Assembly (NCBI GenBank): GCA_964597545.1
Contig: CAZQXN010000001.1
Span: 69,655 to 133,654, forward strand
Reading direction: 5' to 3'
Origin: an uncultured Planctomycetia bacterium
GTDB taxonomy: Bacteria > Omnitrophota > Gorgyraeia > 1-14-0-20-64-10
Length of the DNA stretch: 64,000 nucleotides
This document shows, one piece after another, positions 5,788 through 62,535 of the stretch (position 1 is its first letter; each line of letters opens with the position of its first letter). The translations under genes and the position numbers were made by a program. Below the pieces are notes generated by a model, which had not been told where the DNA came from, made no database searches, and saw only the letters and a list, made by a program, of their open reading frames with translations.

Positions 5788-5925
5788 AGGACCTAAGTAT
5801 CACCACTTCTGTCGGACCCGTCAATACCTATCCATTCTGGATTCCCCCTGCTCCGTACGTTAATATACATAAAGTTGGTTATTTTCCTTGTTTTTTACCC
5901 CCTTTATAGGCCATACTTTCCTTAT

Positions 5926-18503: not shown

Positions 18504-20564
18504 ATGAGTGCTCCCCGTCAACCGGCGGAACATTCCGCCCGATCCAATAAGCGTCTTCTGCTGCAGCAAATTTCTCTGTTCGCTGACCTTACGGACGAGC
18601 AGCTGGATTTCGTTGCCGACCGATCCCGCCTGGATGAATTCGACAAGGGTCAAACCATTTATACCCGGGGGGACAAGCCGGATTCCTTCTATGGCTTAGT
18701 CAGCGGCCGGGTTCGGATCTATGGGGGAGCCCCCGACCAGGCCCAGCGAGAGATCCTGGAGGTCCTGCACCGCGGCGACTACTTCGGGATGATCTCGATC
18801 CTCACCAATGAGCCTCATTCGGTGACGGCCGAGGTGGTCAACGATTCAATCCTCTTTAGAATTCAGCGGCCGGACTTCGAGGCGATCCTCAAAGAGATCC
18901 CAGCAGTTGCCGTTCACCTGTCCACCACCCTCTCTCGACGCCTGCGCCAAAAGGACTTAGGTGAGAAAAAGATCTTTGAGTCCACTCTGATCTCCATCTA
19001 CAGCCCGCTTAAGGGGACCGGACGCACCATGTACGGGATCAATCTGGCGAGCTCCCTTCACCGGGAAACCGGCAAGAAGGTGATTCTCCTCGATATGAGC
19101 CCTGCCGGGGATGCGGTCTGCCAGGCGATGGAGCGGCCTAAATGCCCCACCCCATTGAAGCTCAAGGGGGTGCGGTTTAATCAAGATCAAGTGGCCTTAG
19201 CCATTGCCCACCACCCTGAGGTGGGCTTTGACACGCTGAACATCGCGCACGACCCCAATGTCGCCTCGGATGTGACACAGATCACCCCGCTGTTATCCTA
19301 TTTGGCGAACTCCTATCATTTTGTCATCAGTGATCTGCCGCACGAGATGGACCGCACGGTCTTCAAGGCGCTGGCGCAGGCAGACCTCATTCACTTGGTC
19401 TCAACCGGGGCCAGGGCTCAATTGCATACCACCGCCGATGTCCTCGAGGATCTCAAGAAAACCGTGCAGATGGTGGACGAGCGGGTCAAGGTGGTGGTCA
19501 ACGAGAGCACCGCCAATACCGATCAGGCAGAGCGGACCTTGATTCTCAATCGCAAGGTGTACGCTACCCTGCCCCGGGTCGATGCCACCCCGGCTCCGGG
19601 GCATCCCATTGTCTCGGCCCATCCGAATTGGGAATATGCCCAATCGGTCCGCCGGATCGCGCGGGAGATCGGAGAGGTGCTGGTGGGCCTGGTACTTGGC
19701 TCCGGGGCAGCCTTGGGGCTGGCGCACATCGGGATCTTAAGGATCTTAGAGCGTGAGAAGATCCCCATCGACATCATTGCTGGTTCTTCCATGGGGGCGC
19801 TGATCGGCACCTTATGGGCCTCGGGGCTCTCCTCAAACCAGATTGAGGAGATTGCCAGCAATTTCAAAACCAAGGCCTCCCTTCTGCAATTGATCGACTT
19901 GACCATCCCGAAGTTTGGGATCTTTACCGGCCGGCGCATCACCAAATTCTTGGCGAATGAGTTCGAGGATATGACCTTCCGAGACCTGAAGCTGCCCATG
20001 AAGGTGGTGGCCTGCGATTATGTCCGGCGGGAGGTAGTGGTGTTGGACGAAGGGCCGGTGGTGCCGGCCATTCGGGCTTCGGTCTCGATCCCGGGAATCT
20101 TTGAGCCGGTCAAGATCAACCACCGTTGGTTGATTGACGGCGGCGTGCTGGATCCGGTGCCGGTAGACACGCTGGCTCAGATGGGGGTGCACAAGATCAT
20201 TGCGGTCAATACCCTGCCCAGCCCCACAGACATTCGCCGCAAGCAGGTGGAGGGAGCTGCCGAGTGGGGAGAGATCCGCCGCCAGGCACAGCGCAAGGGA
20301 CTGCTGCATGCCCTTTTGTTCCAGATGAGGCTCGCCTTCCGCAACTGGCGAGATCCCAACATCTTGGACGTCATCATGCATTCGATGCAGGCCATGGAGT
20401 ACGAGCTGGCGGAGGCTGCTTGCGCTCAGGCAGATGTGGCACTCCACCCGACGATCCCCCGAATCAACTGGTGGGAGTTCTATAATGTGGATGAGTTGAT
20501 TGAAGAGGGGACGCGCCGGGCAGAAGCGCACTTGGATGAAATCAAGCGATTGGTGTCTGAATGA
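18504..20564 (+). CDS. Cyclic-nucleotide-binding domain / degenerate ParA-MinD-like domain / patatin-like phospholipase fusion protein
   Basis: The N-terminal cNMP-binding fold reads ...FDKGQTIYTRGDKPDSFYGLVSGRVRIY.... The middle region has a degenerate Walker A (SPLKGTGRTMYGINLASSLHRETGKKVILLDMS). The C-terminal part is patatin-like, with GSSMG (GxSxG), DGG and oxyanion-like VLGSGAALG motifs. Confidence 0.8.
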   Translation: MSAPRQPAEHSARSNKRLLLQQISLFADLTDEQLDFVADRSRLDEFDKGQTIYTRGDKPDSFYGLVSGRVRIYGGAPDQAQREILEVLHRGDYFGMISILTNEPHSVTAEVVNDSILFRIQRPDFEAILKEIPAVAVHLSTTLSRRLRQKDLGEKKIFESTLISIYSPLKGTGRTMYGINLASSLHRETGKKVILLDMSPAGDAVCQAMERPKCPTPLKLKGVRFNQDQVALAIAHHPEVGFDTLNIAHDPNVASDVTQITPLLSYLANSYHFVISDLPHEMDRTVFKALAQADLIHLVSTGARAQLHTTADVLEDLKKTVQMVDERVKVVVNESTANTDQAERTLILNRKVYATLPRVDATPAPGHPIVSAHPNWEYAQSVRRIAREIGEVLVGLVLGSGAALGLAHIGILRILEREKIPIDIIAGSSMGALIGTLWASGLSSNQIEEIASNFKTKASLLQLIDLTIPKFGIFTGRRITKFLANEFEDMTFRDLKLPMKVVACDYVRREVVVLDEGPVVPAIRASVSIPGIFEPVKINHRWLIDGGVLDPVPVDTLAQMGVHKIIAVNTLPSPTDIRRKQVEGAAEWGEIRRQAQRKGLLHALLFQMRLAFRNWRDPNILDVIMHSMQAMEYELAEAACAQADVALHPTIPRINWWEFYNVDELIEEGTRRAEAHLDEIKRLVSE

Positions 20565-30321: not shown

Positions 30322-30732
30322 ATGTTTCGTCATCGATTTGGGCAGCGCTACAAGTACCAGAATACGCGCCAGTATTTGAGGCTGCCGATCTCATGGCCGG
30401 TCAAGTGCGAACCCAAGCAAGCCGAGGAGGGTCGGCACGTCACCGCCACGCAGGATGTCAGCGCCGGGGGTATGCGCATGATTGTCCGGGAGGAGGTTCC
30501 GGTCGATTCCGAGGTCGTCCTGGAGATTCATGTGCCGCCGCTGGAGCGCTCCATCCAAGCCGTGGGCCGTGTGCTGCGCTGCCAACCGAGCCGCAGGGGT
30601 TTTGAGCTGGGGGTGCGCTTTGAGAAGATCGACCCGAGAGATCAGGTAGCGCTCAATGAAGCGGTGGAGCAATTTTACAGTCCCCGCAAACGGGTTCGCC
30701 ACCAACAGTCGTGGTGGCGAAAGATCACTTAA
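30322..30732 (+). CDS. PilZ domain protein (putative c-di-GMP receptor)
   Basis: RQYLRLPISWPVKC...TQDVSAGGMRM, i.e. the PilZ signatures. Confidence 0.55.
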   Translation: MFRHRFGQRYKYQNTRQYLRLPISWPVKCEPKQAEEGRHVTATQDVSAGGMRMIVREEVPVDSEVVLEIHVPPLERSIQAVGRVLRCQPSRRGFELGVRFEKIDPRDQVALNEAVEQFYSPRKRVRHQQSWWRKIT

Positions 30733-30752
30733 GGGGGTGTGTTAAGTCCGGG

Positions 30753-32258
30753 ATGAAGCGGCTGCTCAGGGCGGGGTTGGTGTTGGGCATGATACTCGCA
30801 GGCAGCCAGTTTTCGCCGGCAGAGGCAAGATCGGTGTTGACGTTGGACGAGATTGTAGCCATGGAGAAACGAATCCGTATGGCAGCAGCGCTCGAGGAAA
30901 AAAGGGCTCGAACCGAAGCTGAGGCCTGGGCCAAAGCAGATGCTGAGGCGGAGGCGCTCGTGCAGACCGAGGCTGAACCGGAGCCGCCGCCAGAGGTCGA
31001 ACCGGCCCAGAGGCCCGCAGTGCCTGAAGCAGAAGCGGCTCAGCTTGCAACCGAGGAGGAGCATTTGCAGCCAGAGATCCCCCCTAATCTCCTTGCTGGA
31101 GGCGAGACGGCTGAGTCGGATGAGGCCATAGGAGAAGAATCGGGCCTGGAGGAAAAACTTGGAGGCGGCGGGCTGTGGCGATACCTCAAGGAGCGGACCA
31201 AATGGGGTGTGGGCTATGACATGACCTACACCGATAACCTGCTCTTAGAGGACAACGACAAGCAGGAGGAGCTGACCAGCGTGTTGGAAAGTCAGATGTT
31301 TTTTCTAGATACTGTGGGATCTCTGGTCTACGGCACCACCTATGAGGTCAACGCCTACCGCTACCACTGCAGCGACGCCAACAGTATCGACCATGATCTA
31401 TCGGCCTTTGTGGATCTTGCGCCTTCGGCACCCTACTCCATGGGGGTGAACTACCACCTGGATGTCACCAACAGCCTAGTGACCACAACCGATGAGATCG
31501 ACATCTTCTTAAGAAGTACGGACTTTCAGCGGCAAGTGACGCACACAGGAACTGGGGAATTTTCTTACTTCATCAACAACTTAGACACTCTGGACTTGAG
31601 CATGGCGTATAAGGTTGTCGACAGCCAGAGGCAGCCGGATGCCGGCCGAGACAAGAATACGCTTACGGCAACCGCGGACCTCTCCCATGAGTTTAGACCC
31701 GGCTGGTTTGTGAGTGGCGGTTATGCATTCACCAAGAAGAGGATCCCCGACGACGAAGATAAAAACTCAGTAAAGCACTTGGGGACTTTGGGCTTGCGCT
31801 ATGACTTGACCGAAGAGGCGAAGCTGAATCTCAGGCTCCAAGTAGGCAAGATCACCTTCAATGAGCTCGGGGAAAAGAGCATCCTCAGCTTTGACGGCGC
31901 AGTGAAATATCCCATCCGGCTCAGGCCCCGCCTCACGATTAATCTGGGATATCGAGACACAGAATCTTCTTCCGAGGCGGTTGGAACTACCACTGTCCGC
32001 GCCCGGAGGTCCTCCATCGGCCTGGAGTATGCGGTGACATCGCTCATCACCTTTGAATCGAAGGCCGCCTACATCAAAAACCGGTCTACCTCTTCCGCCG
32101 GTCTGACTACATTTGGCCGAAGTTATACAGTTAACAGCGGCTTTGCCTGGAACCTGCGAGAAAACGCAAAGCTTCTATTGGGCCACACACACGCGCGGTC
32201 GAAAAGCGGCGATTATACGAGCAACGTTGTGGCACTCGAATTTGAGATGGAGATCTAG
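30753..32258 (+). CDS. Putative outer-membrane beta-barrel protein of the EPS locus with a low-complexity Ala/Glu/Pro-rich N-region
   Basis: A signal peptide (MKRLLRAGLVLGMILAGSQFSPAEA), an AE-rich low-complexity region, and a C-terminal half of alternating amphipathic strands (...YTVNSGFAWNLRENAKLLLGHTHARSKSGDYTSNVVALEFEMEI). Confidence 0.4.
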   Translation: MKRLLRAGLVLGMILAGSQFSPAEARSVLTLDEIVAMEKRIRMAAALEEKRARTEAEAWAKADAEAEALVQTEAEPEPPPEVEPAQRPAVPEAEAAQLATEEEHLQPEIPPNLLAGGETAESDEAIGEESGLEEKLGGGGLWRYLKERTKWGVGYDMTYTDNLLLEDNDKQEELTSVLESQMFFLDTVGSLVYGTTYEVNAYRYHCSDANSIDHDLSAFVDLAPSAPYSMGVNYHLDVTNSLVTTTDEIDIFLRSTDFQRQVTHTGTGEFSYFINNLDTLDLSMAYKVVDSQRQPDAGRDKNTLTATADLSHEFRPGWFVSGGYAFTKKRIPDDEDKNSVKHLGTLGLRYDLTEEAKLNLRLQVGKITFNELGEKSILSFDGAVKYPIRLRPRLTINLGYRDTESSSEAVGTTTVRARRSSIGLEYAVTSLITFESKAAYIKNRSTSSAGLTTFGRSYTVNSGFAWNLRENAKLLLGHTHARSKSGDYTSNVVALEFEMEI

Positions 32259-35995: not shown

Positions 35996-37909
35996 ATGGC
36001 ACGCACACTTGAGGAGTGGCATCTGGACGATTACTTGAGGACCCTGGCGCTCAACAAGTGGTTTATCCTGCTGATCACAGCCATCGCGGTTGGGGTTTCG
36101 GTGGCTTCTCTCTCGCAAAAACCAGATCGCTACACCACCACCGCACAAATCCTCATTGAGACCGAGCCTCCCCGGTATCTTAAATTCCAACAGGAAGGAT
36201 CCTCGCACGGACAGTCTTGGGACAAGCGTTTCCTGGAGACAGAGTATTACCTTATTTCAAGCCCTGTTGTTTTGGATCGCGTGGCCGAGACATTACGCCT
36301 CGCAGACTTTGCCCCCTTTTCTAACGCAGCGGATCCAACCGAACAACTTGCTGCGATGGTTTCCGTCCAGCCCCTCCGGGGGACAAAGCTAGTGGATGTC
36401 AAGGTGACCGGCGAAAAACCGGAGCTGATTTCCAAGATCGCCGATGCGGTGGCAGATACGTATGTTCGGTTTAACTTAGAGCGCCGGCGATCCCTCACCA
36501 CGGGGGGGCTGTATTGGATCCGGGAAGAGCTGCGCAAGATGGAAGGTCGCATTCAAGCTTCCCAGGAACAGCTTCGCGTACTTTTGGCAAAACACCCGGA
36601 CATCGATATGAGCGCAGAGCAGCAGAGGGCAGTGCTTCGGCGCCTGCAGAGCTTAAACACTGCTCTGACGAATACACGCAAGGAGCGCATTGAAGCGCAG
36701 GCCCGTTTTCGCGAAAAGCACCCCAAGATCTTAGAGCTGGCAGCCAAGGAAAAAGAGCTGAGCCTGGCCCTCTTTGACCAGGAGCAAAGCGCCCTGGAGG
36801 CCAATCGAATTTCCATCCAGTACAGCGCCCTTGAGCGAGAGGTCAAGACCGGCGAGCAGATCTACAATATTCTGCTGACCCGAATGAAGCAGCTCGCAGT
36901 CCAGGAGGGGCTGGAGACCAACAATGTGCAGGTGGTCAACCATGCTAGAATTCCCATTAAACCGTTCGCACCCAACCGGCAATCCGTTTTGTGGGGCGCT
37001 ATTCTGTTGGGCCTGGTGGTCGGGGGCAGCTTGAGCATTCTGCGCACGGCGCTGGCTAAGGTGATTCTCACGCGCCAAGAGTTCGAGGAGATTGTCGGTA
37101 TACCGTACTTGGGGCAGATCCCCTCTGTCCCCAGGCGGATACACAGCAGCAATAAACAACTACCCCTTCTGAATGCACCTCAATCCTCTGCCGCAGAAGC
37201 AATCCGGGGTATCCGAACAAGCCTTGCCTTTATCGTCTCTGGCAAAGGATCGCATGTGCTGGTGGTTACCAGCGCTCTGCCGGAGGAAGGGAAATCGCTG
37301 ACCTGCGCCAATCTGGCCATCGGACTCAAAGAGCTGGGCGAAGAGGTACTGTTGATCGATGCGGACATGCGCCGCCCCTCCGTCCACCAGCGCTTCAATC
37401 TGCCCCTGGCTCCGGGTTTGAGCGCTTATCTCCAGCATCGGGTAAATGTCGAGGATTTGGTACAATCTACTCAAGGGGCCAGAGGGCTTTCTGTGATCTC
37501 GGCTGGGACAAACGTTTTGCACCCCAGTGATCTCTTGGCCAGTGAACGCATGGGGGAGCTGCTGCGCTTGAGCCGGGAGCGGTATCGGTTCTGCCTCATA
37601 GATACGCCACCGGTGCTGGCTGTCCCGGATACAGCGGCTCTCTCCAAGTTTGTGGATGGAGCCATCTATGTGGTGCGGGGAAACCGAACGCATCAAGAGG
37701 CCGCCCAGGCGGGGAAGGCCAGGCTTTCCGATGTGGGCATCCGGGTGGTTGGGGGGATTCTGAATGCCGTGCCTATTAAGATTGCCCGACATTATCCTGA
37801 CGCCTATTACCCCAGGAGCTATACGGTCAGCGGTGACTGGGAGAAGGGGCCCGTGACAAAATCGGATTTTTCATCGGAGATAAACCGTGAAGGCTCTCAA
37901 CCCGGATAA
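35996..37909 (+). CDS. Polysaccharide co-polymerase / BY-kinase (Wzc / GumC-like), paralog 1
   Basis: An N-terminal Wzz-like TM and periplasmic coiled-coil, and a C-terminal P-loop ATPase (VTSALPEEGKSLTCANLAIGL...LLIDADMRRP) with a Tyr-containing tail. Confidence 0.8.
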   Translation: MARTLEEWHLDDYLRTLALNKWFILLITAIAVGVSVASLSQKPDRYTTTAQILIETEPPRYLKFQQEGSSHGQSWDKRFLETEYYLISSPVVLDRVAETLRLADFAPFSNAADPTEQLAAMVSVQPLRGTKLVDVKVTGEKPELISKIADAVADTYVRFNLERRRSLTTGGLYWIREELRKMEGRIQASQEQLRVLLAKHPDIDMSAEQQRAVLRRLQSLNTALTNTRKERIEAQARFREKHPKILELAAKEKELSLALFDQEQSALEANRISIQYSALEREVKTGEQIYNILLTRMKQLAVQEGLETNNVQVVNHARIPIKPFAPNRQSVLWGAILLGLVVGGSLSILRTALAKVILTRQEFEEIVGIPYLGQIPSVPRRIHSSNKQLPLLNAPQSSAAEAIRGIRTSLAFIVSGKGSHVLVVTSALPEEGKSLTCANLAIGLKELGEEVLLIDADMRRPSVHQRFNLPLAPGLSAYLQHRVNVEDLVQSTQGARGLSVISAGTNVLHPSDLLASERMGELLRLSRERYRFCLIDTPPVLAVPDTAALSKFVDGAIYVVRGNRTHQEAAQAGKARLSDVGIRVVGGILNAVPIKIARHYPDAYYPRSYTVSGDWEKGPVTKSDFSSEINREGSQPG

Positions 37910-37925
37910 GGGGACCGTGTAACCC

Positions 37926-39872
37926 ATGGCGCGCTCGCTCGAGGAGTGGCAGCTAGACGATTATCTGCGAAGCCTGCTGCTTCACAAGTGGGGCATCCTT
38001 CTGATCACCCTCCTTTTCGGCGGATACACAGCCCTTCAGATGGCCCAACAGCCCAACATCTATAGGGCAGCCACTCGAATCCTGATCGAAACAGACACGC
38101 CGCGGTATCTTCGGTTCCAAGAGGTGATGCCTTACGGTGGCAGGGGGTCGGACCGCGAATTCCTTCAAACCGAGTATCAGGTAATCGCTAGCCGCGCGGT
38201 CATGTCCCAGGTCGTCGACAACCTCCACCTGGCAGCCTTCCCTCCTTTCTCGCGTGCCAAGGATCCGGTACGCCGCCTGCAGTCCATGGTCGCTGTCCAG
38301 CCGGTCCGGGGAACCAAGCTCGTGGACATCGGGGCCACCGGACTCAAGCCTGAGCTCATCTCCAGGATTGCCGATTCTGTTGCAGATACCTATGCGCGCC
38401 TTAATCTGGAGCGCCGGCGGAGCCTCACGAGCGGCGGCATCGGGTGGATTCAGAAAGAGCTCGAGAAGATGGAGGAGAAGATCCAGGCTGCCCAGCAGGG
38501 ACTCCACAACTTCCTGGAGGAAAATTCGGGGGTTGACTTCGGGGTGGAGCAGCAGAAGTCGGTTCTTCAGCGCCTTCAAGCCCTAAACGCCGCCTTGACC
38601 AATACGCGCAAGGAACGCATTGAGGCTCAAACCCGGTTCCGGCAGAAGCACCCCAAGATCCTGGAGCTGCAGGCCAAGGAACAGGAGCTGCAGCTTGCCC
38701 TCTTTGATCAGGAGCAAAGAGCCCTTGAGGCCAACCGGCTCTCCATCCAGTACAGCGCCCTCCATCGGGAGGTCAAGACCAGCGAGCAGATCTACAACAT
38801 TTTGCTCACCCGCATGAAACAGCTTTCGGTTCAGGAGGGGCTCGAAACCAACAATGTGCAGGTGGTGGATTACGCCATCGTTCCGGATTTCCCCATCGGG
38901 CCTCCGCGGCGAAGCCGCACCAGTTCCTCCGCCATGGTCGGTTTTGCAATCGGCTGCGGCCTGGCAATCTTGAGGGAGCTCTTAAGCCGCACCATCCGAA
39001 CGCGCCAGGAGTTCGAACAGCTCCTGGAGATACCCTTCCTTGGACACCTGCCCATGGTTCAAAAAGAGCACTTGAAGCGCGGGGCCGCAACATTCGTGGC
39101 GCCCAACATTGCCCTCGGCGGCTTTGGCGAAGCGCTGCGCTCAGTCAGAACTACCCTTGAATTCGTGCTGCCTTCGGCGGAGTCTCATTTATTGCTCGTT
39201 ACCAGCTCCCTTCCGGAAGAAGGCAAAACCTTCTGCTCGGTGAACTTGGCCGTCGCGCTCCATGAACTCGGACGTAAGGTGCTCCTTATAGATGGAGATT
39301 TGCGCCGCCCTTCGCTTCATCGCATGCTGAAAATCCCGCTTGAGCCGGGCTTGAGCGGTTTCTTAGAGGGCCGTATCGGCGAGGAGGAGTTAATCCAAAC
39401 GGTTCCCTCCATAGAGGGGTTCCCGGTGGTGGCGGCCGGCATGTCACCCACGCAACCCACCGATCTTCTGAGCAGCCCGAAGTTGGCGGAACTGCTCAAG
39501 AGTTGGAGAGCACAGTTCCAGTACATCCTCATCGACTCGCCGCCTACATTGGTGGCTGCAGATTCGGTCGTTCTGGCCTCAGCGACAGATGGTGTTATCT
39601 TCGTTGTTCGGGCCAACCGGACACACGACGAGGCGGCCATCGCCGGAAAGCAGCGGCTCGTCGATGTAGGGGCAAAAATCCTTGGAGGGATATTGAACGT
39701 CGCCAACCTCCAGATGGAGCGGGGCTACCGGTACTACTATTCCTATCGCTACTATCACTCCAAGGGGTACGGGAAAGAGCGCAGAGGGCACCGCCCCTCC
39801 CGCCGCGCCTCGGGTGACTCGGGAATCTCCCCAATCGGGCCTACGCCCGGTGGGCCAGATGAAACAACCTGA
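37926..39872 (+). CDS. Polysaccharide co-polymerase / BY-kinase (Wzc-like), paralog 2
   Basis: Collinear with paralog 1 (MARSLEEWQLDDYLRSL versus MARTLEEWHLDDYLRTL; the LQSLNTALTNTRKERIEAQ.RFR.KHPKILEL segment is near-identical), plus a C-terminal Tyr cluster YRYYYSYRYYHSKGY. Confidence 0.8.
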   Translation: MARSLEEWQLDDYLRSLLLHKWGILLITLLFGGYTALQMAQQPNIYRAATRILIETDTPRYLRFQEVMPYGGRGSDREFLQTEYQVIASRAVMSQVVDNLHLAAFPPFSRAKDPVRRLQSMVAVQPVRGTKLVDIGATGLKPELISRIADSVADTYARLNLERRRSLTSGGIGWIQKELEKMEEKIQAAQQGLHNFLEENSGVDFGVEQQKSVLQRLQALNAALTNTRKERIEAQTRFRQKHPKILELQAKEQELQLALFDQEQRALEANRLSIQYSALHREVKTSEQIYNILLTRMKQLSVQEGLETNNVQVVDYAIVPDFPIGPPRRSRTSSSAMVGFAIGCGLAILRELLSRTIRTRQEFEQLLEIPFLGHLPMVQKEHLKRGAATFVAPNIALGGFGEALRSVRTTLEFVLPSAESHLLLVTSSLPEEGKTFCSVNLAVALHELGRKVLLIDGDLRRPSLHRMLKIPLEPGLSGFLEGRIGEEELIQTVPSIEGFPVVAAGMSPTQPTDLLSSPKLAELLKSWRAQFQYILIDSPPTLVAADSVVLASATDGVIFVVRANRTHDEAAIAGKQRLVDVGAKILGGILNVANLQMERGYRYYYSYRYYHSKGYGKERRGHRPSRRASGDSGISPIGPTPGGPDETT

Positions 39873-39954: not shown

Positions 39955-41376
39955 ATGGTTAAAACTCAAAAAAACACCTCTGGGGTGTGGGGAACCATCT
40001 CTGTGCTGGCCGCAGCCTGGATCATCCTGTATGTTACGAAATTCCGCTGGGCAAGCGCCGAAGAAGCGCACTGGACGGCACTGCTCTATGTGCTGTGCTG
40101 CATTCCAACCGTCGCTTTTGTCGCCGGACATAAGTTTCGCATTCCGCTCATGCCGATGTGGGGCCTCGGTTATTTCATGCTTTTCGGCGTTCCTCTTCTG
40201 GGAGAAGCAGAATTGGGGGTGTTCGGCTGGATACCCTCAGAGCTTGTCGCAGCAGCGCTTCGATTGACGGTTGCAGGGGCTCTGGCCTGCCTGATCGCAT
40301 TCTACTCGCCTCTAGGCCAGCTGGTGGAAAGTTTTGTTCCGCATCTGAAGCTTCCCTGGGATGTAGAGCGAGCTCCAAAAATAGGAATCGCCCTCATCAT
40401 CGTCGGTCTTGCCTGTTACTACTATAAATTGACTTCGCCGCCCTCCTTGGTAATGGGGCAGCTTGTATTTCTGCTGTCGCAGCTGGTTATTGTCGGCTCC
40501 CTTACACTGTTTCTCCTTCAGCTGCGAGGACATCTCTCCCGCATGCTCAAGGTTTTCCTGTGGGGTGTCACTATACCGATATTGTTCCTGATGGGATTGG
40601 GGACGGGAGCTCTTTGGCAGGTCATCCGGAGCTTGGCCCCCTTGTTGTTCTGCTACGCTGCCGAACGCCGCAGGCTCCCGTGGGTTGGGATGGCTGTTCT
40701 GGCCATCAGCATCATCCCATTTCTGGGCTTTAAGCATGAGTATCGCTCGTACGCCTGGCATAGGGAAGAGCCCGAAACCATGGCCGCGCCCCCTTCGCCG
40801 ATCGAGCGAGGTTTGGCCTTTGTTCGGCTGACCAGCCAACGCCTGACCGAAGGGGGCGTGGAAAGTTACGCCGTGGCGGCAGAAACAGCAGAGGCTCGAG
40901 TGAATCACCTGCAAGTTCTCGCTACCGTCATGGACATGACGCCTTCCCTGATCCCTTACTGGCGCGGAGAAACTTATCAAACGCTCTGGTGGGTGCTTGT
41001 TCCTCGGTTTCTGTTCCCAGAGAAACCCACCAAGATGCTGGGACAAGAATTTGGTCACCGCTACAGCCTTCTTCATCCGGAGGATTTCACGACCTCCTTC
41101 AACCTTCCACACCAAGTCATCGAGATGTACATCAACTTTGGCACCATCGGTGTGGTCATCGGGATGATCGTCGTGGGGCTGGTCTACCGGACCACTCTGA
41201 CGCTGCTCAGCCACCCGGACTCCGGTGAGCGCGGTATCATCATCGGTTGCGCGCTGCTGGGCAACCTCATGGCCCTGGACAGTGACTTCTCTCTTGTGTT
41301 CGGAGGGCTGTTCTACTACGTTGCGCTGATGGCCTTCTTCACGCGATTCCTCCAGCCGAGGACATCAACGGCCTGA
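39955..41376 (+). CDS. Polytopic membrane protein, putative polysaccharide polymerase/ligase (Wzy/O-antigen-ligase-like)
   Basis: The 473-aa ORF has about 10-12 TM helices and a larger loop. The call rests on its location between the Wzc genes and the glycosyltransferases and on its topology. Confidence 0.4.
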   Translation: MVKTQKNTSGVWGTISVLAAAWIILYVTKFRWASAEEAHWTALLYVLCCIPTVAFVAGHKFRIPLMPMWGLGYFMLFGVPLLGEAELGVFGWIPSELVAAALRLTVAGALACLIAFYSPLGQLVESFVPHLKLPWDVERAPKIGIALIIVGLACYYYKLTSPPSLVMGQLVFLLSQLVIVGSLTLFLLQLRGHLSRMLKVFLWGVTIPILFLMGLGTGALWQVIRSLAPLLFCYAAERRRLPWVGMAVLAISIIPFLGFKHEYRSYAWHREEPETMAAPPSPIERGLAFVRLTSQRLTEGGVESYAVAAETAEARVNHLQVLATVMDMTPSLIPYWRGETYQTLWWVLVPRFLFPEKPTKMLGQEFGHRYSLLHPEDFTTSFNLPHQVIEMYINFGTIGVVIGMIVVGLVYRTTLTLLSHPDSGERGIIIGCALLGNLMALDSDFSLVFGGLFYYVALMAFFTRFLQPRTSTA

Positions 41377-45893: not shown

Positions 45894-47022
45894 ATCCCGA
45901 CAGCGCCACATCCTCCTGCTGGGAAACGACCCGGGCGACCAACAATGGAGCATGCTGCATTACGGAGAACAGCTCCTCCGGCACCTCGCCCAGCTCTGCC
46001 CGCCTCAGTGGAAAATCTCTCTGTGCGCTCCCCAAACGCAACAGATGGCATTCAGGCGCTGGTGGAGAGGCCCATCTGCTGGAATGTACTGGTCCCGATA
46101 CGTGCGGTATCCTCGACTGCTCAAGGGGGTGCGGTCGCATCTGTATCACATCTTGGATCATGGAAACGGATGGCTCATTCGGTACCTGGACCCCTCTCGA
46201 ACAGTCATCACCTGTCACGACCTCATCCCGCTGCTCTTCGGCAGACAGAGGCGTTCTCTCTTTGGGCCTCTGACCAAAGCGGCATTTCAACATGCCGTCA
46301 CAGGGCTGACCAAAGCAAAGGCCCTGCTGGTCAACTCAAGCCAAACCAGAAAGGATCTTGTCTGCCGCCTTCAGCTGGACCCGCGGCGCATCCACATTAC
46401 TCCCTTGGGGGTCGAGCCAGAGTTCCGACCGCTCCCTTCGGGTGAAAACCCCACGGGGTTGCGAAAAAAGTTCGATTTGCCTGAAGGAGTCCTCTTGCTG
46501 CATGTCGGACACACTGCCTTCTACAAGAACGTGGAGGGGCTGCTGCACTGCCTTAAGATTCTCAGGGCCCGGGAGCAACCGGTGTGGCTGATCAGGGTTG
46601 GGGAGGGACTTCAGCTCCATCAGCGGACTTTGGCGAAGCGCTTCGGTATCGCCGACCGGGTCGTTGAGCTGGGCTCGGTATCTCGAGGGCAGCTGCAAGA
46701 GCTGTATCGAGCCGCCGATCTGTTGGTCTTTCCCTCGTGGTACGAGGGGCAAGGCCTGCCTCCGCTTGAAGCGATGGCATCTGGGCTGCCTGTCGTCGCC
46801 TCCAACCGGGGCGCCTTACCGCAGACCCTAGGGCAAGCCGGCATCCTGGTGGAGCCAAACGCGCCTGCGCAAATGGCCGATGCGGTGGGGCGCATCCTTG
46901 GAGACAGAGCGTTGCGAACTCAGCTGTGTGCGCGCGGCTTGAAGCGTGCTGCCGACTTTCGCTGGGAAACCACGGCCCAAGAAACTCTACGGGTGTACCG
47001 GTCGCTGCTCGAAAACCTATGA
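45880..47022 (+). CDS. GT4 family glycosyltransferase
   Basis: EGQGLPPLEAMASGLPVVASNRGALPQTLG (E-x7-E region). I chose the GTG start at RHILLLGN, giving a 14-nt overlap with the upstream gene. Confidence 0.7.
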   Translation, partial: AVPAESRQRHILLLGNDPGDQQWSMLHYGEQLLRHLAQLCPPQWKISLCAPQTQQMAFRRWWRGPSAGMYWSRYVRYPRLLKGVRSHLYHILDHGNGWLIRYLDPSRTVITCHDLIPLLFGRQRRSLFGPLTKAAFQHAVTGLTKAKALLVNSSQTRKDLVCRLQLDPRRIHITPLGVEPEFRPLPSGENPTGLRKKFDLPEGVLLLHVGHTAFYKNVEGLLHCLKILRAREQPVWLIRVGEGLQLHQRTLAKRFGIADRVVELGSVSRGQLQELYRAADLLVFPSWYEGQGLPPLEAMASGLPVVASNRGALPQTLGQAGILVEPNAPAQMADAVGRILGDRALRTQLCARGLKRAADFRWETTAQETLRVYRSLLENL

Positions 47023-47047
47023 TATACTCTCCGTCGGGAGGAAACGA

Positions 47048-48079
47048 ATGATCTGGAGGGGCCGAAAGATTTTGATTACCGGTGGAGCTTCTTTTATCGG
47101 CTCTCACTTGACCGATGCGCTCGTTGAGCAGGGTGCTTCGGTTCGAATCGTCGACGATCTCTCAAGCGGAAAACGAGAGAATCTCGAGAGGCATCTGAAA
47201 ACCGGCGCCATAGAATTCATCCAGGATGACCTGCGGAATCAAGAGGTCGCCCAGCGTGCGGTTGGCGGGATGCAAGTCGTATTCCACCTGGCAGCCGCTC
47301 ATGGCGGACGCGGCTATGTCGATCTGCACCAAGCTGCCTGTGCAGAAAACCTCACGCTGGATGGCTTAGTCTTTCAGGCCTGCCAGAAGACCGGCGTGGA
47401 GAAGATTGTTTATGCCTCGAGCGGGTGCGCCTACCCCAACCACCTTCAAGCAGACCCCAACCAAATCCTCTACCTCACCGAGGCAATGGTGGGACCGCCC
47501 TATGATGCGGATAACCTATACGGCTGGGCGAAACTGATGGGGGAACTTACCCTAAAGGCGCTCTATAAAGAGCGCGGCTTGAAATCGGCCTCCTGCCGGT
47601 ACTTCACAGTCTACGGGCCGAGGGGCCATGAGAATCACGCCGTGATTGCCATGATCGCCCGGGCTTTCATCAAACAAGATCCCTTTGAGGTCTGGGGTGA
47701 TGGGACGCAGTTGAGGAATTGGACGTGGATAGGAGACATCGTCGAGGGCACCATGCTGGCGGCCGAGAAAATCGACGATGGGGCGGCCATCAACCTCGGC
47801 ACCATGGAGCGGATTCGGGTGAACGATGCGGTCAAGATGGTCATGGATTACACGGGCCACAAACCCAAAATTCGTTTTCGACCCGACATGCCAACGGGTC
47901 CGCGCAACCGCGTAGCAGACAATGCCCTGGCCAAACAACTCCTGAGCTGGGAGCCCAAGGTTCCATTTCGGGAGGGGCTTCGCCGCACCATTGACTGGTA
48001 CTTCTCAACCAAAGATCCCAAGCGCATTCAACGGCTGGCGTTCGAGCAGCTGTTGACCGAGCGGGGCATCCACTCTTGA
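47048..48079 (+). CDS. NAD-dependent sugar-nucleotide epimerase/dehydratase (SDR; UDP-glucuronate decarboxylase / dTDP-glucose dehydratase-like)
   Basis: ILITGGASFIGSHL (a GxxGxxG Rossmann motif) and the YxxxK catalytic motif region. Confidence 0.75.
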   Translation: MIWRGRKILITGGASFIGSHLTDALVEQGASVRIVDDLSSGKRENLERHLKTGAIEFIQDDLRNQEVAQRAVGGMQVVFHLAAAHGGRGYVDLHQAACAENLTLDGLVFQACQKTGVEKIVYASSGCAYPNHLQADPNQILYLTEAMVGPPYDADNLYGWAKLMGELTLKALYKERGLKSASCRYFTVYGPRGHENHAVIAMIARAFIKQDPFEVWGDGTQLRNWTWIGDIVEGTMLAAEKIDDGAAINLGTMERIRVNDAVKMVMDYTGHKPKIRFRPDMPTGPRNRVADNALAKQLLSWEPKVPFREGLRRTIDWYFSTKDPKRIQRLAFEQLLTERGIHS

Positions 48080-50310
48080 GCGCTCCATCCTCAAAAAAGA
48101 CCAATCCAAAGGTTGCGCTTATCACGGGAATCACCGGCCAGGACGGCTCTTACCTTGCGGAGCTTCTCCTTTCCAAGGGCTACATTGTCCATGGCCTCAT
48201 CCGGCGAGCCAGCACGTTCAATACCCAACGGCTGGAACACCTTTACCAAGACCCGCACGACGCCAAGGCCCATCTGCTTCTTCACTACGGGGATCTTTCC
48301 GATGCCAGCCGGCTTACGAATCTCCTCTATGAGATTCGCCCTGACGAAATCTATCACTTGGGCGCCCAAAGCCACGTTCGAGTCAGCTTCGATTCCCCGG
48401 ATGACACGGGCGAGATTAACGCCTTAGGAACCGTTCGGCTTCTTGAAGCCATCCGCCGAGGGCTTCCTCGCTGCCGAATCTACCAAGCCTCCTGCTATGA
48501 CGACCAAACACGGGTCCTTACAACGGAAGGTCTTAAGACGTATAAGGAGATCGGAATCGGCGATCTGGTACTTACAGTCGACACCACCACAAATCGGTTG
48601 GAAGCCAAGCCCGTAAAGCGCGTAATAGTCTCCCCTTACCGAGGAGACATGATGCGGCTCAAGAGCCGCCGGTTCGACCTCTTGGTGACTCCCAATCATC
48701 AACTCCTTCTGCACGGCACAGCAGGACTCTTTTATTCGACCGCAGGTGATTTACAGATGCCAGATCAAGAGCAGTTTTACTCCGGTCACAGCTCGGTCAA
48801 ATTTCCTAATCCCCTTTGGCAAAAGGAGCGGAAACCCTCCATTCAACTAAGCCAAGTGGCCCCGTGCGAACTCCCCTGTAACGCAACGAAGAACCTGGTT
48901 GATGAAATTGAGACGAACGATTTGTTCTGGCTCGTTGGTCTCTATGTGGGAGATGGTTACTGCTCGCCGGACAAGCGCGCCCTGAGGAGTGGGTCGAAGG
49001 ATCAATTTATCGCGTTCCGTGGCCAGCAGGGCCGCTTCGTAGCCCAGCCTAAAACGGAGGCAGTCACTTACCCCAGTCACAACATCTACTTCGCGATCCC
49101 CTCGTCCGACAAGTCGCGCGGCCGGTTAGTCCTATGGCTTGAAAAATATGGCATCGAGTATCGTGCCAGCCGGGAATGGATCCGATATTCGTCGTACCCG
49201 TTGGCACACTTTCTGCGGAGCTGCGGGACAACCGCCAAAGAAAAGCACATCCCCCCATGGATGCTGACTTATGACCGTGAGCATCTCCGTGCATTATTTG
49301 ACGGCCTGATCGGATCTGACGGCCATATGCGGCGCAACCAGAAAACCTACACGTATACCACAACCTCCGATACGCTGTTGAATCAGGTGGTGGAACTATC
49401 GGTCAAGCTCGGATTCCGGTGCTCGACGTCCAAAAAACTGGGCAGGGACGTCCTTTACGTCAAGGAACAGCGAATCATCCGCGCGTCGCAAGCGTACGTT
49501 GCGCACATCTCCAACAATCATCGAAAGCGGCCAATTACTTTGTACCCATCACAGGTCCGACGCACCCCTTATGCGGGAACGGTATGGTGCTTGGAGATCG
49601 CTGACAACCACAATTTTCTCGTGGAGCGCAACGGCCGATATGCATTCTGCGGGAACAGTTCCGAGATGTTCGGCGCAGCCCCCGCACCCCAAAACGAGAA
49701 GACGCCTTTCTGTCCCTGCAGCCCGTACGCCACCTCCAAGGTCTATGCCTATTGGATGGCCCGGAACTACAGGCAAGCCTATCGGCTCTTCGCCTGCAAC
49801 GGCATCATGTTCAACCACGAGTCTCCTCGGCGCGGGGCAACCTTCGTCTCCCGGAAGATTACGCGTGCCGTTGCGGCCATCGCGGCCGGCAAACAAAAGA
49901 AACTTTTCCTCGGCAATCTCAAATCCCGCCGCGACTGGGGATACGCGCCGGAGTACGTTCAAGCCATGTGGCTGCTGCTCCAGCAAAGGACCCCTCAGGA
50001 TCTGGTCTTTGGAACCGGAGAGGCTCACTCTGTACAGGAGTTTGTTGAAACCGCCTTTGGCTACGCAAATCTCGATTGGAAGAAATACGTCAAGACCGAT
50101 CTCCGTTATCTGCGCCCCACCGATGTCTCTCTGCTCAGAGCAAATGCTTCCCTGGCCAAGCGGCGGCTGGGATGGACGCCTCAGATCCGTTTTAAAGCTT
50201 TGGTCCGGCTGATGGTGGATGCCGACATGGAAGCCATCGGCTTAACACCTCCTGCCAGTAGCCGCTCACAACAAGGATACAAACGGCTCAAATGGCTCCG
50301 GCGGCCGTAA
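48076..50310 (+). CDS. gmd: GDP-mannose 4,6-dehydratase interrupted by an in-frame intein
   Basis: The N-extein reads [27 protein letters not shown]...RIYQAS, and the C-extein reads SSEMFG...[61 protein letters not shown]. Spliced together they form a canonical Gmd (compare E. coli YQASTSELYG...[55 protein letters not shown]). Confidence 0.85.
48493..49656 (+). mobile_element. Intein (388 aa) with a LAGLIDADG homing-endonuclease domain inside gmd
   Basis: It starts with Cys1 ([30 protein letters not shown], block A), has block B TPNHQ, two LAGLIDADG motifs ([15 protein letters not shown] and [15 protein letters not shown]), blocks [29 protein letters not shown], and ends in Asn followed by the +1 Ser of the extein. 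Confidence 0.8.
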
Positions 50311-51245
50311 CCGCTCTGCACAATCAACGCATTCTGGTCACCGGTGGAGCAGGCTTTCTGGGCCAACATCTGGTGCAAGCCCTTCGGAATCGAGGGTGCC
50401 AAGAGGCCTTTATCCCCAGGAAAAAGGATTATGACCTCACGCAGCAGGATGCGGTCCGTCGCCTCTATCGAGACAGTCGGCCTACCTTGGTTTTCCATCT
50501 GGCTGCTGTCGTGGGTGGAATCCTTGCCAACCAGGCCAATCCAGGTCGATTTCTCTACGAAAACCTCATCATGGGCCTGCAGTTGATGGAGGGCGCTAGG
50601 CAATCGGGCGTTCAGAAATTCGTGACGGCTGGAACCATCTGTTCCTACCCGAAACACACCCCCACCCCGTTCCAAGAGAAGGACCTCTGGAGCGGGTACC
50701 CCGAAGAGACCAATGCCCCTTATGGCCTTGCCAAGAAGACGCTGCTCGTTCAGGGCCAAGCCTATCGCCAGCAGTACGGGTTTAATTCCATCCATCTGAT
50801 GCCGGTCAACCTGTATGGCCCCGGAGATCACTTCGACCTGCAGACTTCCCACGTCATCCCCGCGCTGATCCGCAAATGCTTGGAGGCCATTCGGGACAAG
50901 AAGCCGGAAATCATCTGCTGGGGAGACGGTTCGCCGACCCGGGAATTCCTCTATGTGGCAGATTGCGCGGAGGGCCTCACGCTGGCTGCGGAACGATACG
51001 AGGGCGGTGAGCCGATTAATCTTGGTTCCGGATCAGAGATCTCAATTAAGGATCTGGTGCACTTGATCGCCGAACTGACCGGATACAATGGCCGAATCAT
51101 CTGGGACACCTCCAAGCCGAACGGGCAACCGAGGCGCTGTCTAGACACTCGTCTTGCCCAAGAACGCTTTGGCTTCCAGGCAAAAACGCCCCTTCGCGAA
51201 GGTCTTGAGCAAACCATCCGATGGTATCGAGAGCATCCGGCCTAA
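50292..51245 (+). CDS. fcl: GDP-L-fucose synthase (GDP-4-keto-6-deoxy-D-mannose 3,5-epimerase/4-reductase)
   Basis: [14 protein letters not shown]...[37 protein letters not shown]...GTICSYPK is a canonical Fcl/WcaG sequence, and the gene lies directly downstream of gmd. Confidence 0.8.
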
Positions 51246-61596: not shown

Positions 61597-62535
61597 TTAC
61601 GGGCAGCGCTCTCTCTGGCGTCTGAACATCTCTTTTCGCAGGCCAAGGCGATGACGGAGCGGCCTGGTCCAAGCCAGCAGGGGATACCACACTTGGAGAG
61701 ACCACTGCTCCAAAAGCAATGAACGCCTCCTGGAGATCCTCAGCGCACCTCCCCAGGAAAACCTTAGCCTCGTCGGGGTAAGCCGATGGTTGGCATCCTC
61801 CAGGGTGTAGCGTTTTCTTGGGCCCCCTGCCAGCTCTAGGCTGCGGATGCTCTCTGGGCTCTTGGCCACCTCATCCCAAACAGCAGCCGAGACATGCCCG
61901 TAATCGTGCTTCTGGTGGACGGCCTGGATGACTGCCGTAGCATCGATCAGCAGCGCCCCTTTAGTCCTGGCGTAAGCGAGCAACCAATGATCTGACCACC
62001 CGCGCCCAACTGCAAAAGCCGGCATCTCCTTTACGAAGCCCCGCGGAAAAACAAAGTAATCGATTGCAAAGGAAGAGCCGATTCGCCCGCGCTTGGCCAC
62101 ATCCGCCCTTAAAGAGGCCTCCCAGTTTCCCTTGAAGCGCATCGGCTCGCGCACGTCCAAGTTCCATCGGTGTCCGCACAGCAGGAAGGGCCGCTTCAGG
62201 CACACCACCCTTTGGACCGCCTTCATGAAGTCGCTCATCAGAATCATATCGGCGTTCAGGTGGCACAGAAAATCGGAGGTGGACATCTGCTCAACCCTTT
62301 TAAACATGTCGCTGATCAGTGGGGTGCCAAATTCGTTGGAAGCAACCTCAGGAACATGCGTTAGCCCAAGTTCCTCGCAGAGCTCTGCCGTACCCTCTTC
62401 ATTGCCAGACAGAATCACTTCTGGTTTCGGAGAGAGCTTGCTCCAGCTGGTAATCGCATTTCGCTGAATCAAGCCGATGTGCTGCTTAAAGGGTTTTGGA
62501 CAAGCAAAGAGAGTCAGCATGGCTGCTGCATTCAC
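61597..62535 (-). CDS. Hypothetical protein of the EPS locus (312 aa)
   Basis: A clean ORF tightly packed between two glycosyltransferase genes. I could not assign a motif with confidence. Confidence 0.4.
   Translation of the reverse strand: MNAAAMLTLFACPKPFKQHIGLIQRNAITSWSKLSPKPEVILSGNEEGTAELCEELGLTHVPEVASNEFGTPLISDMFKRVEQMSTSDFLCHLNADMILMSDFMKAVQRVVCLKRPFLLCGHRWNLDVREPMRFKGNWEASLRADVAKRGRIGSSFAIDYFVFPRGFVKEMPAFAVGRGWSDHWLLAYARTKGALLIDATAVIQAVHQKHDYGHVSAAVWDEVAKSPESIRSLELAGGPRKRYTLEDANHRLTPTRLRFSWGGALRISRRRSLLLEQWSLQVWYPLLAWTRPLRHRLGLRKEMFRRQRERCP

Follow-up and report, generated by a model that had tools for sequence, protein, structure and literature searches.

Why does the gene for GDP-mannose 4,6-dehydratase (gmd) in the 64,000-nucleotide stretch of contig CAZQXN010000001.1 that was analysed here ('the window') encode 744 amino acids, and what is the stretch of 388 amino acids that interrupts the enzyme? 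The original prediction, which was made from the letters of the DNA alone, held that this stretch is an intein with a LAGLIDADG homing endonuclease, sitting in the core of an enzyme for capsule and exopolysaccharide (EPS) precursors. It placed the 388-residue insert at 48493-49656, and the coordinates proved exact. We find that the insert is a genuine full-length LAGLIDADG intein of class-1 type. Taken as a whole, the reading that this intein splices itself out and that its endonuclease is active now, or was so recently, appears very probable on the sequences compared below.

Position and architecture of the gmd insert

The insert comprises residues 140-527 of the precursor and is in frame, with the junctions ...RCRIYQAS|CYDDQT... 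and ...RYAFCGN|SSEMFG... (the vertical bar marks the splice site). When it is removed, a Gmd of 356 amino acids remains, and no gap arises at the junction when this is aligned to the solved Gmd structures, being those of Arabidopsis MUR1 (1n7g; E=1e-128) and Escherichia coli Gmd (1db3; E=8e-116). At the junction the window reads YQAS-SSEMFG, compared to YQAG-SSEMFG in 1n7g and YQAS-TSELYG in 1db3. Its 120 best orthologues in the database are 328-362 amino acids long, share at most 74% identity with it and all lack the insert; the nearest intein-less Gmds among them carry the names Methylomirabilis/NC10, Rokubacteria, Tectomicrobia and Binatia. The predicted precise insertion at a conserved extein site is thereby borne out. 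The intein-less site would read ...CGAATCTACCAAGCCTCC|AGTTCCGAGATGTTCGGC..., and the reconstructed empty site ...CTGCCGAATCTACCAAGCCTCC|AGTTCCGAGATGTTCGGCGCAGCC.... Even in its unspliced form the 744-residue precursor is recognized as Gmd, both by the NCBIfam equivalog TIGR01472 (gmd; 450.7 bits against a cut-off of 415, in two stretches) and by the Pfam domain PF16363 (GDP_Man_Dehyd; 6e-125, as a split match), and the exteins contain the NADP-binding GxxGxxG motif (GITGQDG), the S(+1)-S-E sequence and PYATSK, as aligned to 1db3 and 1n7g. The elements of the gene, all on the + strand, are the following.

48076-50310, +: gmd precursor open reading frame (ORF), GDP-mannose 4,6-dehydratase with one intein, 744 amino acids plus stop (ORF list and translation)
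48076-48492, +: N-extein, 139 amino acids, from the Rossmann GITGQDG motif to ...RIYQAS (alignment with 1n7g residues 27-~160 and 1db3 residues 2-131)
48493-49656, +: intein, 388 amino acids (Cys1...Asn388), a HINT splicing domain split by a LAGLIDADG endonuclease domain (Pfam, family alignment, AlphaFold2 model, Foldseek)
48493-48531, +: block A with the N-terminal nucleophile Cys1 (C1, Y2, D3, T6, T10 and G13 invariant in the family alignment)
48670-48711, +: block B with Thr66 (B:7), His69 (B:10) and Leu71 (B:12, not Trp); H69 invariant, T66, P67 and N68 at least 90% conserved
48919-48963, +: first LAGLIDADG motif, acidic Asp154 kept (G149, G153 and G155 conserved; fold matches to I-DmoI and PI-SceI)
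49285-49329, +: second LAGLIDADG motif, acidic Asp276 kept (L272, D276 and G277 at least 90% conserved)
49576-49626, +: block F with Cys366 at F:4 (usually Asp) and His373 at F:13; C366 invariant in family alignment A1, its conservation in A2 being at least 90%
49633-49659, +: block G, GRYAFCGN, plus the +1 Ser codon (block G alone to 49656), with Cys386 at G:5, Gly387 penultimate and Asn388 terminal; G387 and N388 invariant
49657-50307, +: C-extein, 217 amino acids, SSEMFG..., YxxxK (PYATSK), NHESPRRG and the remaining Gmd (alignment to 1n7g and 1db3)

The +1 Ser aligns opposite the Thr in the YQAS-T-SE sequence of 1db3, and the catalytic residues of E. coli Gmd, an extended short-chain dehydrogenase/reductase (SDR), we take to be Thr133, Glu135, Tyr157 and Lys161. 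Judged from this alignment, the +1 nucleophile of the intein is the host's own catalytic Ser/Thr (the equivalent of E. coli Thr133). Because of this correspondence the insertion can be assigned to the catalytic core. Since the intein splits the active-site motif, the precursor would be inactive before splicing. Given the split motif and the presence of an Fcl-like gene directly downstream, it is reasonable to infer that the supply of GDP-fucose would rely on splicing.

All of the intein blocks that had been predicted (A, B with TPNH, two LAGLIDADG motifs and F/G) were located, and the splicing-competent termini were confirmed, with Cys1 (codon TGC at 48493-48495) invariant in both family alignments (A1 and A2), Asn388 likewise invariant in the family and a Ser at +1. 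The two LAGLIDADG cores read LVGLYVGD154G and LIGSD276G, the second lying in a region (precursor residues 394-469) that is matched by PF14528 and PF05204. The register of block F was set by a comparison with the Mtu RecA intein as we presume it to read, in which C366-LEI...H373 stands against D422-LEV...H429. A His at the penultimate position (G:6) and an Asp at F:4 are common, not obligatory, assisting residues of inteins. In the gmd intein these two class-1 residues are replaced by Gly387 and Cys366, a point that had gone unremarked, and His373 at F:13 is present.

A profile of the family finds the intein region in the window at E=1.8e-148 and no other intein in its 64 kb. At the level of sequence the sole significant match in the PDB is PI-PkoII. 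The AlphaFold2 model, with a 45-sequence intein alignment as input, is confident (pLDDT 90.4, pTM 0.87), and its 16 best PDB matches in Foldseek are all intein homing endonucleases (TliVMA, PI-PkoII, PI-SceI, PI-PfuI and PhoVMA; E 2e-16 to 1e-11), followed by I-DmoI for the endonuclease core (TM score 0.61-0.65 on the target) and by mini-inteins, BIL and Hedgehog proteins for the HINT core. The modelled insert thus contains both a pseudo-dimeric LAGLIDADG endonuclease fold and a HINT fold. The exact restoration of the host, the motifs, a confident model that matches intein endonucleases and the homologous inteins in other hosts (see below) together establish that the insert is a genuine intein.

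The closest structural counterparts, PI-SceI (Sce VMA), PI-PfuI, PI-PkoII and TliVMA/PhoVMA, likewise consist of a HINT domain into which a double-motif LAGLIDADG endonuclease is set. They head the structural matches (E 2e-16 to 1e-13, TM score about 0.5) and share Cys1, the TxxH of block B and the terminal Asn with the gmd intein, but sequence identity is limited to 12-16%. They reside in V-ATPase, ribonucleotide reductase and DNA polymerase, whereas the gmd intein resides in a metabolic SDR, and it further differs by the penultimate Gly (not His), the F:4 Cys (not Asp) and the +1 Ser (not Cys).

Relatives of the intein and their hosts

A word-indexed search through 5.8 billion proteins yielded 18 that match the window intein, namely three Gmd fragments (78-80% identity), one RmlB-like SDR, ten archaeal NAD synthases (NadE; 31-38% identity, full length) and four other hosts. 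The window's Era GTPase is present at 100% identity in the NCBI part of the protein collection (P0287), and its nearest named relatives (63-66% identity) come from Candidatus Omnitrophota, a tentative pointer to the taxonomy. The 744-residue Gmd precursor was not among the matches of the intein search, where the best match has 80% identity; the source record may lack a protein annotation for the intein-containing gene, or the protein may be absent from the index. A metagenome scan added five complete copies of the same allele (L084-L088; 71-77% identity), with the insertion site uniformly YQAS|C...FCGN|SSE(M/L)FG. The alleles of the three Gmd fragments stay in frame up to the ends of their contigs. 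The same allele was hence recovered on eight metagenomic contigs, at 71-80% intein identity. Two proteins (P0008 and P0009) whose genes had been called from an internal Met were considered as truncated or frameshifted inteins, and this was rejected as both reading frames stay open up to the end of the contig.

A scan of genome contigs with the window intein as the sole query recovered no relative, and the same scan with the family alignment recovered 169 loci, 80 of which were covered by junction parsing. Gmd hosts were absent from these 80 retained loci. Two large host groups could be discerned among them: NadE (GYF|C...CGN|TKYGDGG) and SDRs that resemble dTDP-glucose 4,6-dehydratase (...(Q/H)(V/I)S|C...CGN|TDEVYG). 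In the latter the intein interrupts the paralogous motif directly ahead of its catalytic Thr, and the hosts span Armatimonadota, Acidobacteriota, Omnitrophota, Planctomycetota, Clostridia, Patescibacteria and archaea. An exhaustive profile search of 1.84 billion representatives gave 36,640 matches, 5,647 of them at E<=1e-30. The top single-intein proteins of this search included further SDR hosts, among which the Gmd-like P0225, P0242 and P0273. The best NCBIfam family of P0225 and P0242 is gmd, P0218, intein included, scores above the RmlB equivalog cut-off, and P0265, from a Promethearchaeota metagenome-assembled genome (MAG), is named GDP-mannose 4,6-dehydratase in its NCBI record. In a neighbour-joining tree of 111 inteins, drawn without support values, the inteins of SDR hosts fall into a single clade whose sister group is made up of the NadE inteins, and the Gmd-hosted inteins (window, P0225, P0242 and P0273) cluster with P0265 inside the SDR clade. 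The wider family also includes inteins in NrdD, ThyX, MCM, a class-III aminotransferase, PurD, as well as one in an SDR that is interrupted at or beside a YxxxK-like motif.

The inteins of RmlB and other extended SDRs have 30-36% identity to the gmd intein over the full length and occupy the equivalent site (...QVS|C...CGN|TDEVYG). A CYD(D/E)xT start, a Cys at F:4 and a terminal (C/S)GN are common to them and the gmd intein, but they differ in their paralogous host, in their separate branch in the tree and in their distribution over many bacterial phyla and archaea. The NadE inteins (36-38% identity) are among the closest full-length relatives beyond the tight Gmd cluster, comparable to P0225 and P0242. 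They have the terminal motifs in common with the gmd intein, but host and site (GYF|C...CGN|TKYGDGG) are unrelated, and their hosts are mostly Archaeoglobi, Nitrososphaerota and Bathyarchaeota.

The claim that such a host is unusual stands when set against curated surveys, but not when set against sequence data, as the same lineage occurs in several Gmd-like and in many dTDP-glucose dehydratase genes. The main text of Novikova et al. 2016 (PMC4760082) mentions no SDR dehydratase and contains neither 'dehydratase' nor 'epimerase'. The same survey lists 10 inteins in UDP-glucose/GDP-mannose dehydrogenase (UDP-GlcDH, COG1004). The archaeal UDP-GlcDH inteins, like 'UDP GD' of M. jannaschii, provide a precedent for an intein in an enzyme of nucleotide-sugar, cell-envelope precursor synthesis. 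The comparison concerns the role of the host, which differs in enzyme family and fold context, being a dehydrogenase rather than an SDR 4,6-dehydratase; the organisms are Euryarchaeota and the site is unrelated. No published intein in Gmd, RmlB or NadE was found in the literature searched, a body that excludes InBase; two giant-virus papers and one on a nanoarchaeon do name the relevant terms, but unconnected with one another. Judging from this limited literature, there is apparently no earlier description of gmd as the host, or of this position as the site, of a canonical intein. The gmd intein belongs to a sizeable clade of inteins that occupy the catalytic position in SDR sugar dehydratases, and this clade, too, has apparently not been described.

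Several relatives of the window gene carry a second intein. The gmd genes at L085:1983-5084 (Ga0126374_10001393) and L088:2577-5726 (Ga0126383_10014904) have a first intein at the site used in the window (site a; YQAS|C...CGN|SSELFG) and a second, unrelated-looking one at ...RDWGHARDY|CINKDV...ISISGN|CEAMWLMLQ. Those at L086:4581-7934 (WNFU01000456.1) and L087:4581-7934 (WNGB01014135.1) combine the site-a intein with a different second one at ...FNHE|SVAGFTPV...GTCHVHN|SPRRGETF, which starts with Ser1 and has a canonical HN end; an Fcl-like gene follows directly at 7953-8900. On these sequences, gmd carries inteins at three distinct sites across the relatives. The Gmd-like P0273 (1061 amino acids, on a 28-kb Logan contig; TKFYQAS|CYDSKT...AFSGN|SSEMFG) could by its length accommodate a second intein and is matched by the profile in two stretches.

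Three further sets were observed outside Gmd. The NadE inteins, with the junction GYF|C...CGN|TK(Y/F)GDGG, were found in L001-L005, L012, L018, L020-L022, L025-L031, L033-L035, L037-L041, P0002-P0012 and P0014, mostly from archaea (Archaeoglobaceae, Nitrososphaerota, Bathyarchaeota) and also from Bipolaricaulota, Chloroflexota and Omnitrophota. A cyanobacterium, Argonema antarcticum A004/B2 (L050:5392-7644), and a Chloroflexia MAG (L063) have an SDR with an intein at ...GSFYHL|C...WCGN|SKVHDSH, at or beside what appears to be the catalytic YxxxK motif (YHLSK). This host presumably resembles the UDP-sulfoquinovose synthase SQD1, and if the site is indeed the YxxxK motif of an SQD1-like enzyme, a second SDR catalytic motif would serve as an intein site. 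Finally, the junction ...ETGLS|C...WCGN|SDP(A/V/E)MNW recurs in L042-L045, L049, L052, L056, L058, L059, L061 and L069, from Omnitrophota, Pacearchaeota and others; in L042 Pfam identifies a LAGLIDADG domain and nothing else.

Splicing, selection and mobility

The positions that are required for splicing (C1, T66, H69, H373, N388 and the +1 Ser) are all present and invariant in the family alignments. Considering these invariant catalytic residues, from which all of the steps are read, the gmd intein most likely follows the standard class 1 pathway. Translation of gmd would yield the 744-residue precursor, presumably inactive as its SDR motif YQAS|SSE is split. Cys1 would then form a thioester at the N-terminal junction, helped by Thr66 and His69 of block B, and the hydroxyl of the +1 Ser would attack it to give a branched ester. 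Cyclisation of Asn388 would free the 388-residue intein, and an O-to-N shift would join the exteins into a Gmd of 356 amino acids that could feed the adjacent Fcl-like enzyme. The freed intein, as a two-motif LAGLIDADG endonuclease, would be able, now or until recently, to cut intein-less gmd and have itself copied in. Going by its relatives, it belongs to a Gmd-specific branch of a clade whose members sit, in extended-SDR nucleotide-sugar dehydratases, at the catalytic Ser/Thr.

The pattern of divergence bears on the endonuclease. Between the window and the seven other alleles, the identity of the intein protein is 71-79%, compared to 51-69% for the exteins of the same genes, and the nonsynonymous divergence (dN) is 0.12-0.19 for the intein against 0.28-0.43 for the exteins. 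The ratio of dN to synonymous divergence (dN/dS), taken against three to seven independent alleles, is 0.07-0.11 for the intein and, at 0.09-0.15, as low in the endonuclease segment as in the splicing segments, so that the whole intein, endonuclease included, is under purifying selection. Two pairs are clearly discordant: L081 and L082 have a dS of 0.215 in the intein and of 2.2 in the C-extein, and for L085 and L086 these values are 0.22 in the intein and 0.53-0.57 in the exteins. Moreover, the window exteins have 74% identity to intein-less Gmds as opposed to 62-65% to Gmds with the same intein, and the distribution of the intein over the Gmd lineages is sporadic. The higher conservation of the intein than of its host, the low dN/dS, the discordance in unsaturated pairs and the sporadic distribution together point to selection on the function of the endonuclease and to horizontal transfer of the intein from one diverged gmd allele to another, as far as can be read from the alignments. 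The intein is probably active.

Some observations weigh against this picture. The dS is saturated (>1) in most comparisons that involve the window, and a compositional sign of recent acquisition is lacking, the G+C content at third codon positions (GC3) being 0.64 in the intein and 0.63-0.68 in the host and neighbour genes; given these two observations, the intein would have arrived in the window genome not recently, or from a donor of similar composition. The intein tree was built by neighbour joining and has no support values. The suggested check against intein models in Pfam had a divided outcome, with LAGLIDADG_3 (2.6e-6) and Hom_end (5e-5) above the cut-off and Intein_splicing (9.5e-7) below it, scoring 29.2 where the gathering cut-off is 35.8. 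And the gmd intein has a Gly for the penultimate His and a Cys for the Asp at F:4 (G387 invariant and C366 at least 90% conserved in 45 sequences). Since they are conserved family-wide, Gly387 and Cys366 can be considered traits of the lineage rather than signs of decay. Inteins without the penultimate His are able to splice, according to Chen, Benner and Perler 2000 and the structure of Ssp DnaE, both as cited in PMC4031507.

The matching GC3 and the dS that already exceeds 1 in comparisons with the relatives would also fit an intein that splices but whose endonuclease is dead, a vertically inherited and immobile passenger on its way to a mini-intein. We consider this rather unlikely given the acidic residues that are kept in both LAGLIDADG motifs, the low dN/dS of the endonuclease segment, the discordant divergence of intein and exteins and the patchy spread over the Gmd lineages. 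The two deviating assisting residues could also be taken to mean that the intein no longer splices, in which case gmd would be a pseudogene or give rise to a precursor that is merely cleaved, and GDP-fucose would derive from another gene, for which the 64-kb view leaves room elsewhere in the genome. This is very improbable, as the 2.2-kb ORF is intact, the exteins are high-scoring Gmd sequences with every catalytic motif, the deviating residues occur throughout the family, whose sequences purifying selection maintains, eight independent contigs carry the same allele in intact form and, as PMC4031507 relates for other inteins, splicing can proceed without the penultimate His. That the insert is no intein at all, but an assembly chimera, an insertion sequence (IS) or transposon, or a fused extra domain, has next to no probability. 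The unusual length of the gene would be its one argument, and it is countered by the in-frame insertion with exact restoration of the host motif, by the same architecture in independent assemblies from JGI, Logan and NCBI WGS, and by the intein-endonuclease fold of the model. An origin as a transposon or IS was rejected separately, there being neither target-site duplications nor terminal inverted repeats at the borders of the insert.

The Cys at F:4, (near-)invariant in the family where standard inteins usually have an Asp, raises the question of class 3. Inteins of this class are defined by a non-nucleophilic residue 1, Trp at B:12, Cys at F:4 and Thr at G:5 (PMC2807308), with DnaB of mycobacteriophage Bethlehem as the prototype and the WCT triplet as their hallmark. 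The gmd intein shares with them the F:4 Cys, which is a class-3 signature (PMC2807308, PMC4031507), and a Ser/Thr at +1, found in nearly all class 3 inteins (PMC2807308). But it has Cys1, Leu71 at B:12 and Cys386 at G:5, so that three of the four defining features are lacking, and its host is not a helicase or terminase; membership of class 3 was therefore rejected. A non-standard or conditional way of splicing, in which Cys366 would act as a class-3-like branch nucleophile, or in which Cys1, Cys366 and Cys386 would form a redox trap that gates the maturation of Gmd, is in line with these same residues and with the missing penultimate His. It is nonetheless improbable in view of the invariant Cys1, the canonical Thr/His of block B, the Leu rather than Trp at B:12 and the Cys or Ser rather than Thr at G:5. 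Equally speculative is the idea that Cys1, Cys366 and Cys386 together with the penultimate Gly mark a distinct lineage of inteins, a hybrid of class 1 and class 3 or a disulfide-gated type, that is specialised for the catalytic sites of metabolic enzymes, namely SDR sugar dehydratases, NadE, PurD, ThyX and NrdD. If the intein were indeed disulfide-gated, the supply of GDP-fucose for EPS would be a post-translational, redox-controlled step. We hold to a class-1-type intein that most likely splices itself in the standard way.

Genomic context and implications

The gmd gene is part of a large polysaccharide cluster, with two Wzz/GNVR/tyrosine-kinase genes, many GT2/GT4 glycosyltransferases, a carbamoyltransferase and a GDSL esterase. 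A search with the spliced Gmd as the query found no second gmd in the 64-kb window. The start codon of gmd is TTG and shares bases with the TGA stop of the upstream SDR gene (CTCTTGAGC). The two genes that flank it are the following.

46946-48079, +: intein-less SDR epimerase/dehydratase upstream, its stop overlapping the TTG start of gmd
50292-51245, +: Fcl-like SDR downstream, probable GDP-L-fucose synthase, overlapping gmd (NCBIfam NF047922 Fcl)

The best NCBIfam family of the downstream SDR is NF047922 (Fcl), with 296.8 bits over the full length, which remains under the strict cut-off of 500 bits. The gmd-fcl gene order recurs in the related locus L086.

Other features of the window were observed in passing. 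The head of the EPS cluster is formed by tandem paralogous Wzz/GNVR/AAA_31 genes of the polysaccharide co-polymerase/tyrosine-kinase type (35996-37909 and 37926-39872, both +). A c-di-GMP-I-GGC riboswitch aptamer (RF03167; 18148-18301, +) is detected with 61.4 bits (gathering score 59; E=4.8e-12); ~200 nucleotides downstream of it begins 18504-20564, which codes for a patatin-like phospholipase of the cyclic-nucleotide-binding kind. A giant ORF of 3161 amino acids (5875-15360, +) has a methyltransferase domain near residues 2252-2394 as its sole Pfam match. No Pfam match was obtained for the window ORFs 39955-41376, 16497-18053, 30711-32258 and 61597-62535 (- strand).

With the present case, the known intein homes are extended by Gmd and thereby by the catalytic Ser/Thr position of the extended-SDR nucleotide-sugar dehydratases. 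This broadens the view of inteins as residents mainly of replication and repair proteins. The occurrence of one intein lineage at equivalent sites in SDRs and at the unrelated catalytic sites of NadE, PurD, ThyX and NrdD offers natural material for research into the way in which homing endonucleases shift their sites, and the genes with two inteins, which bring the total to three sites, make gmd a local intein hotspot. For annotation it implies that gmd and rmlB genes of this kind, encoding 700-1100 amino acids, should not be called fusions or pseudogenes. An intein with Ser+1 and an F:4 Cys, and without the penultimate His, may furthermore be of interest for protein engineering. Finally, if splicing were conditional, the intein would constitute a post-translational valve on the supply of capsule and EPS precursors.

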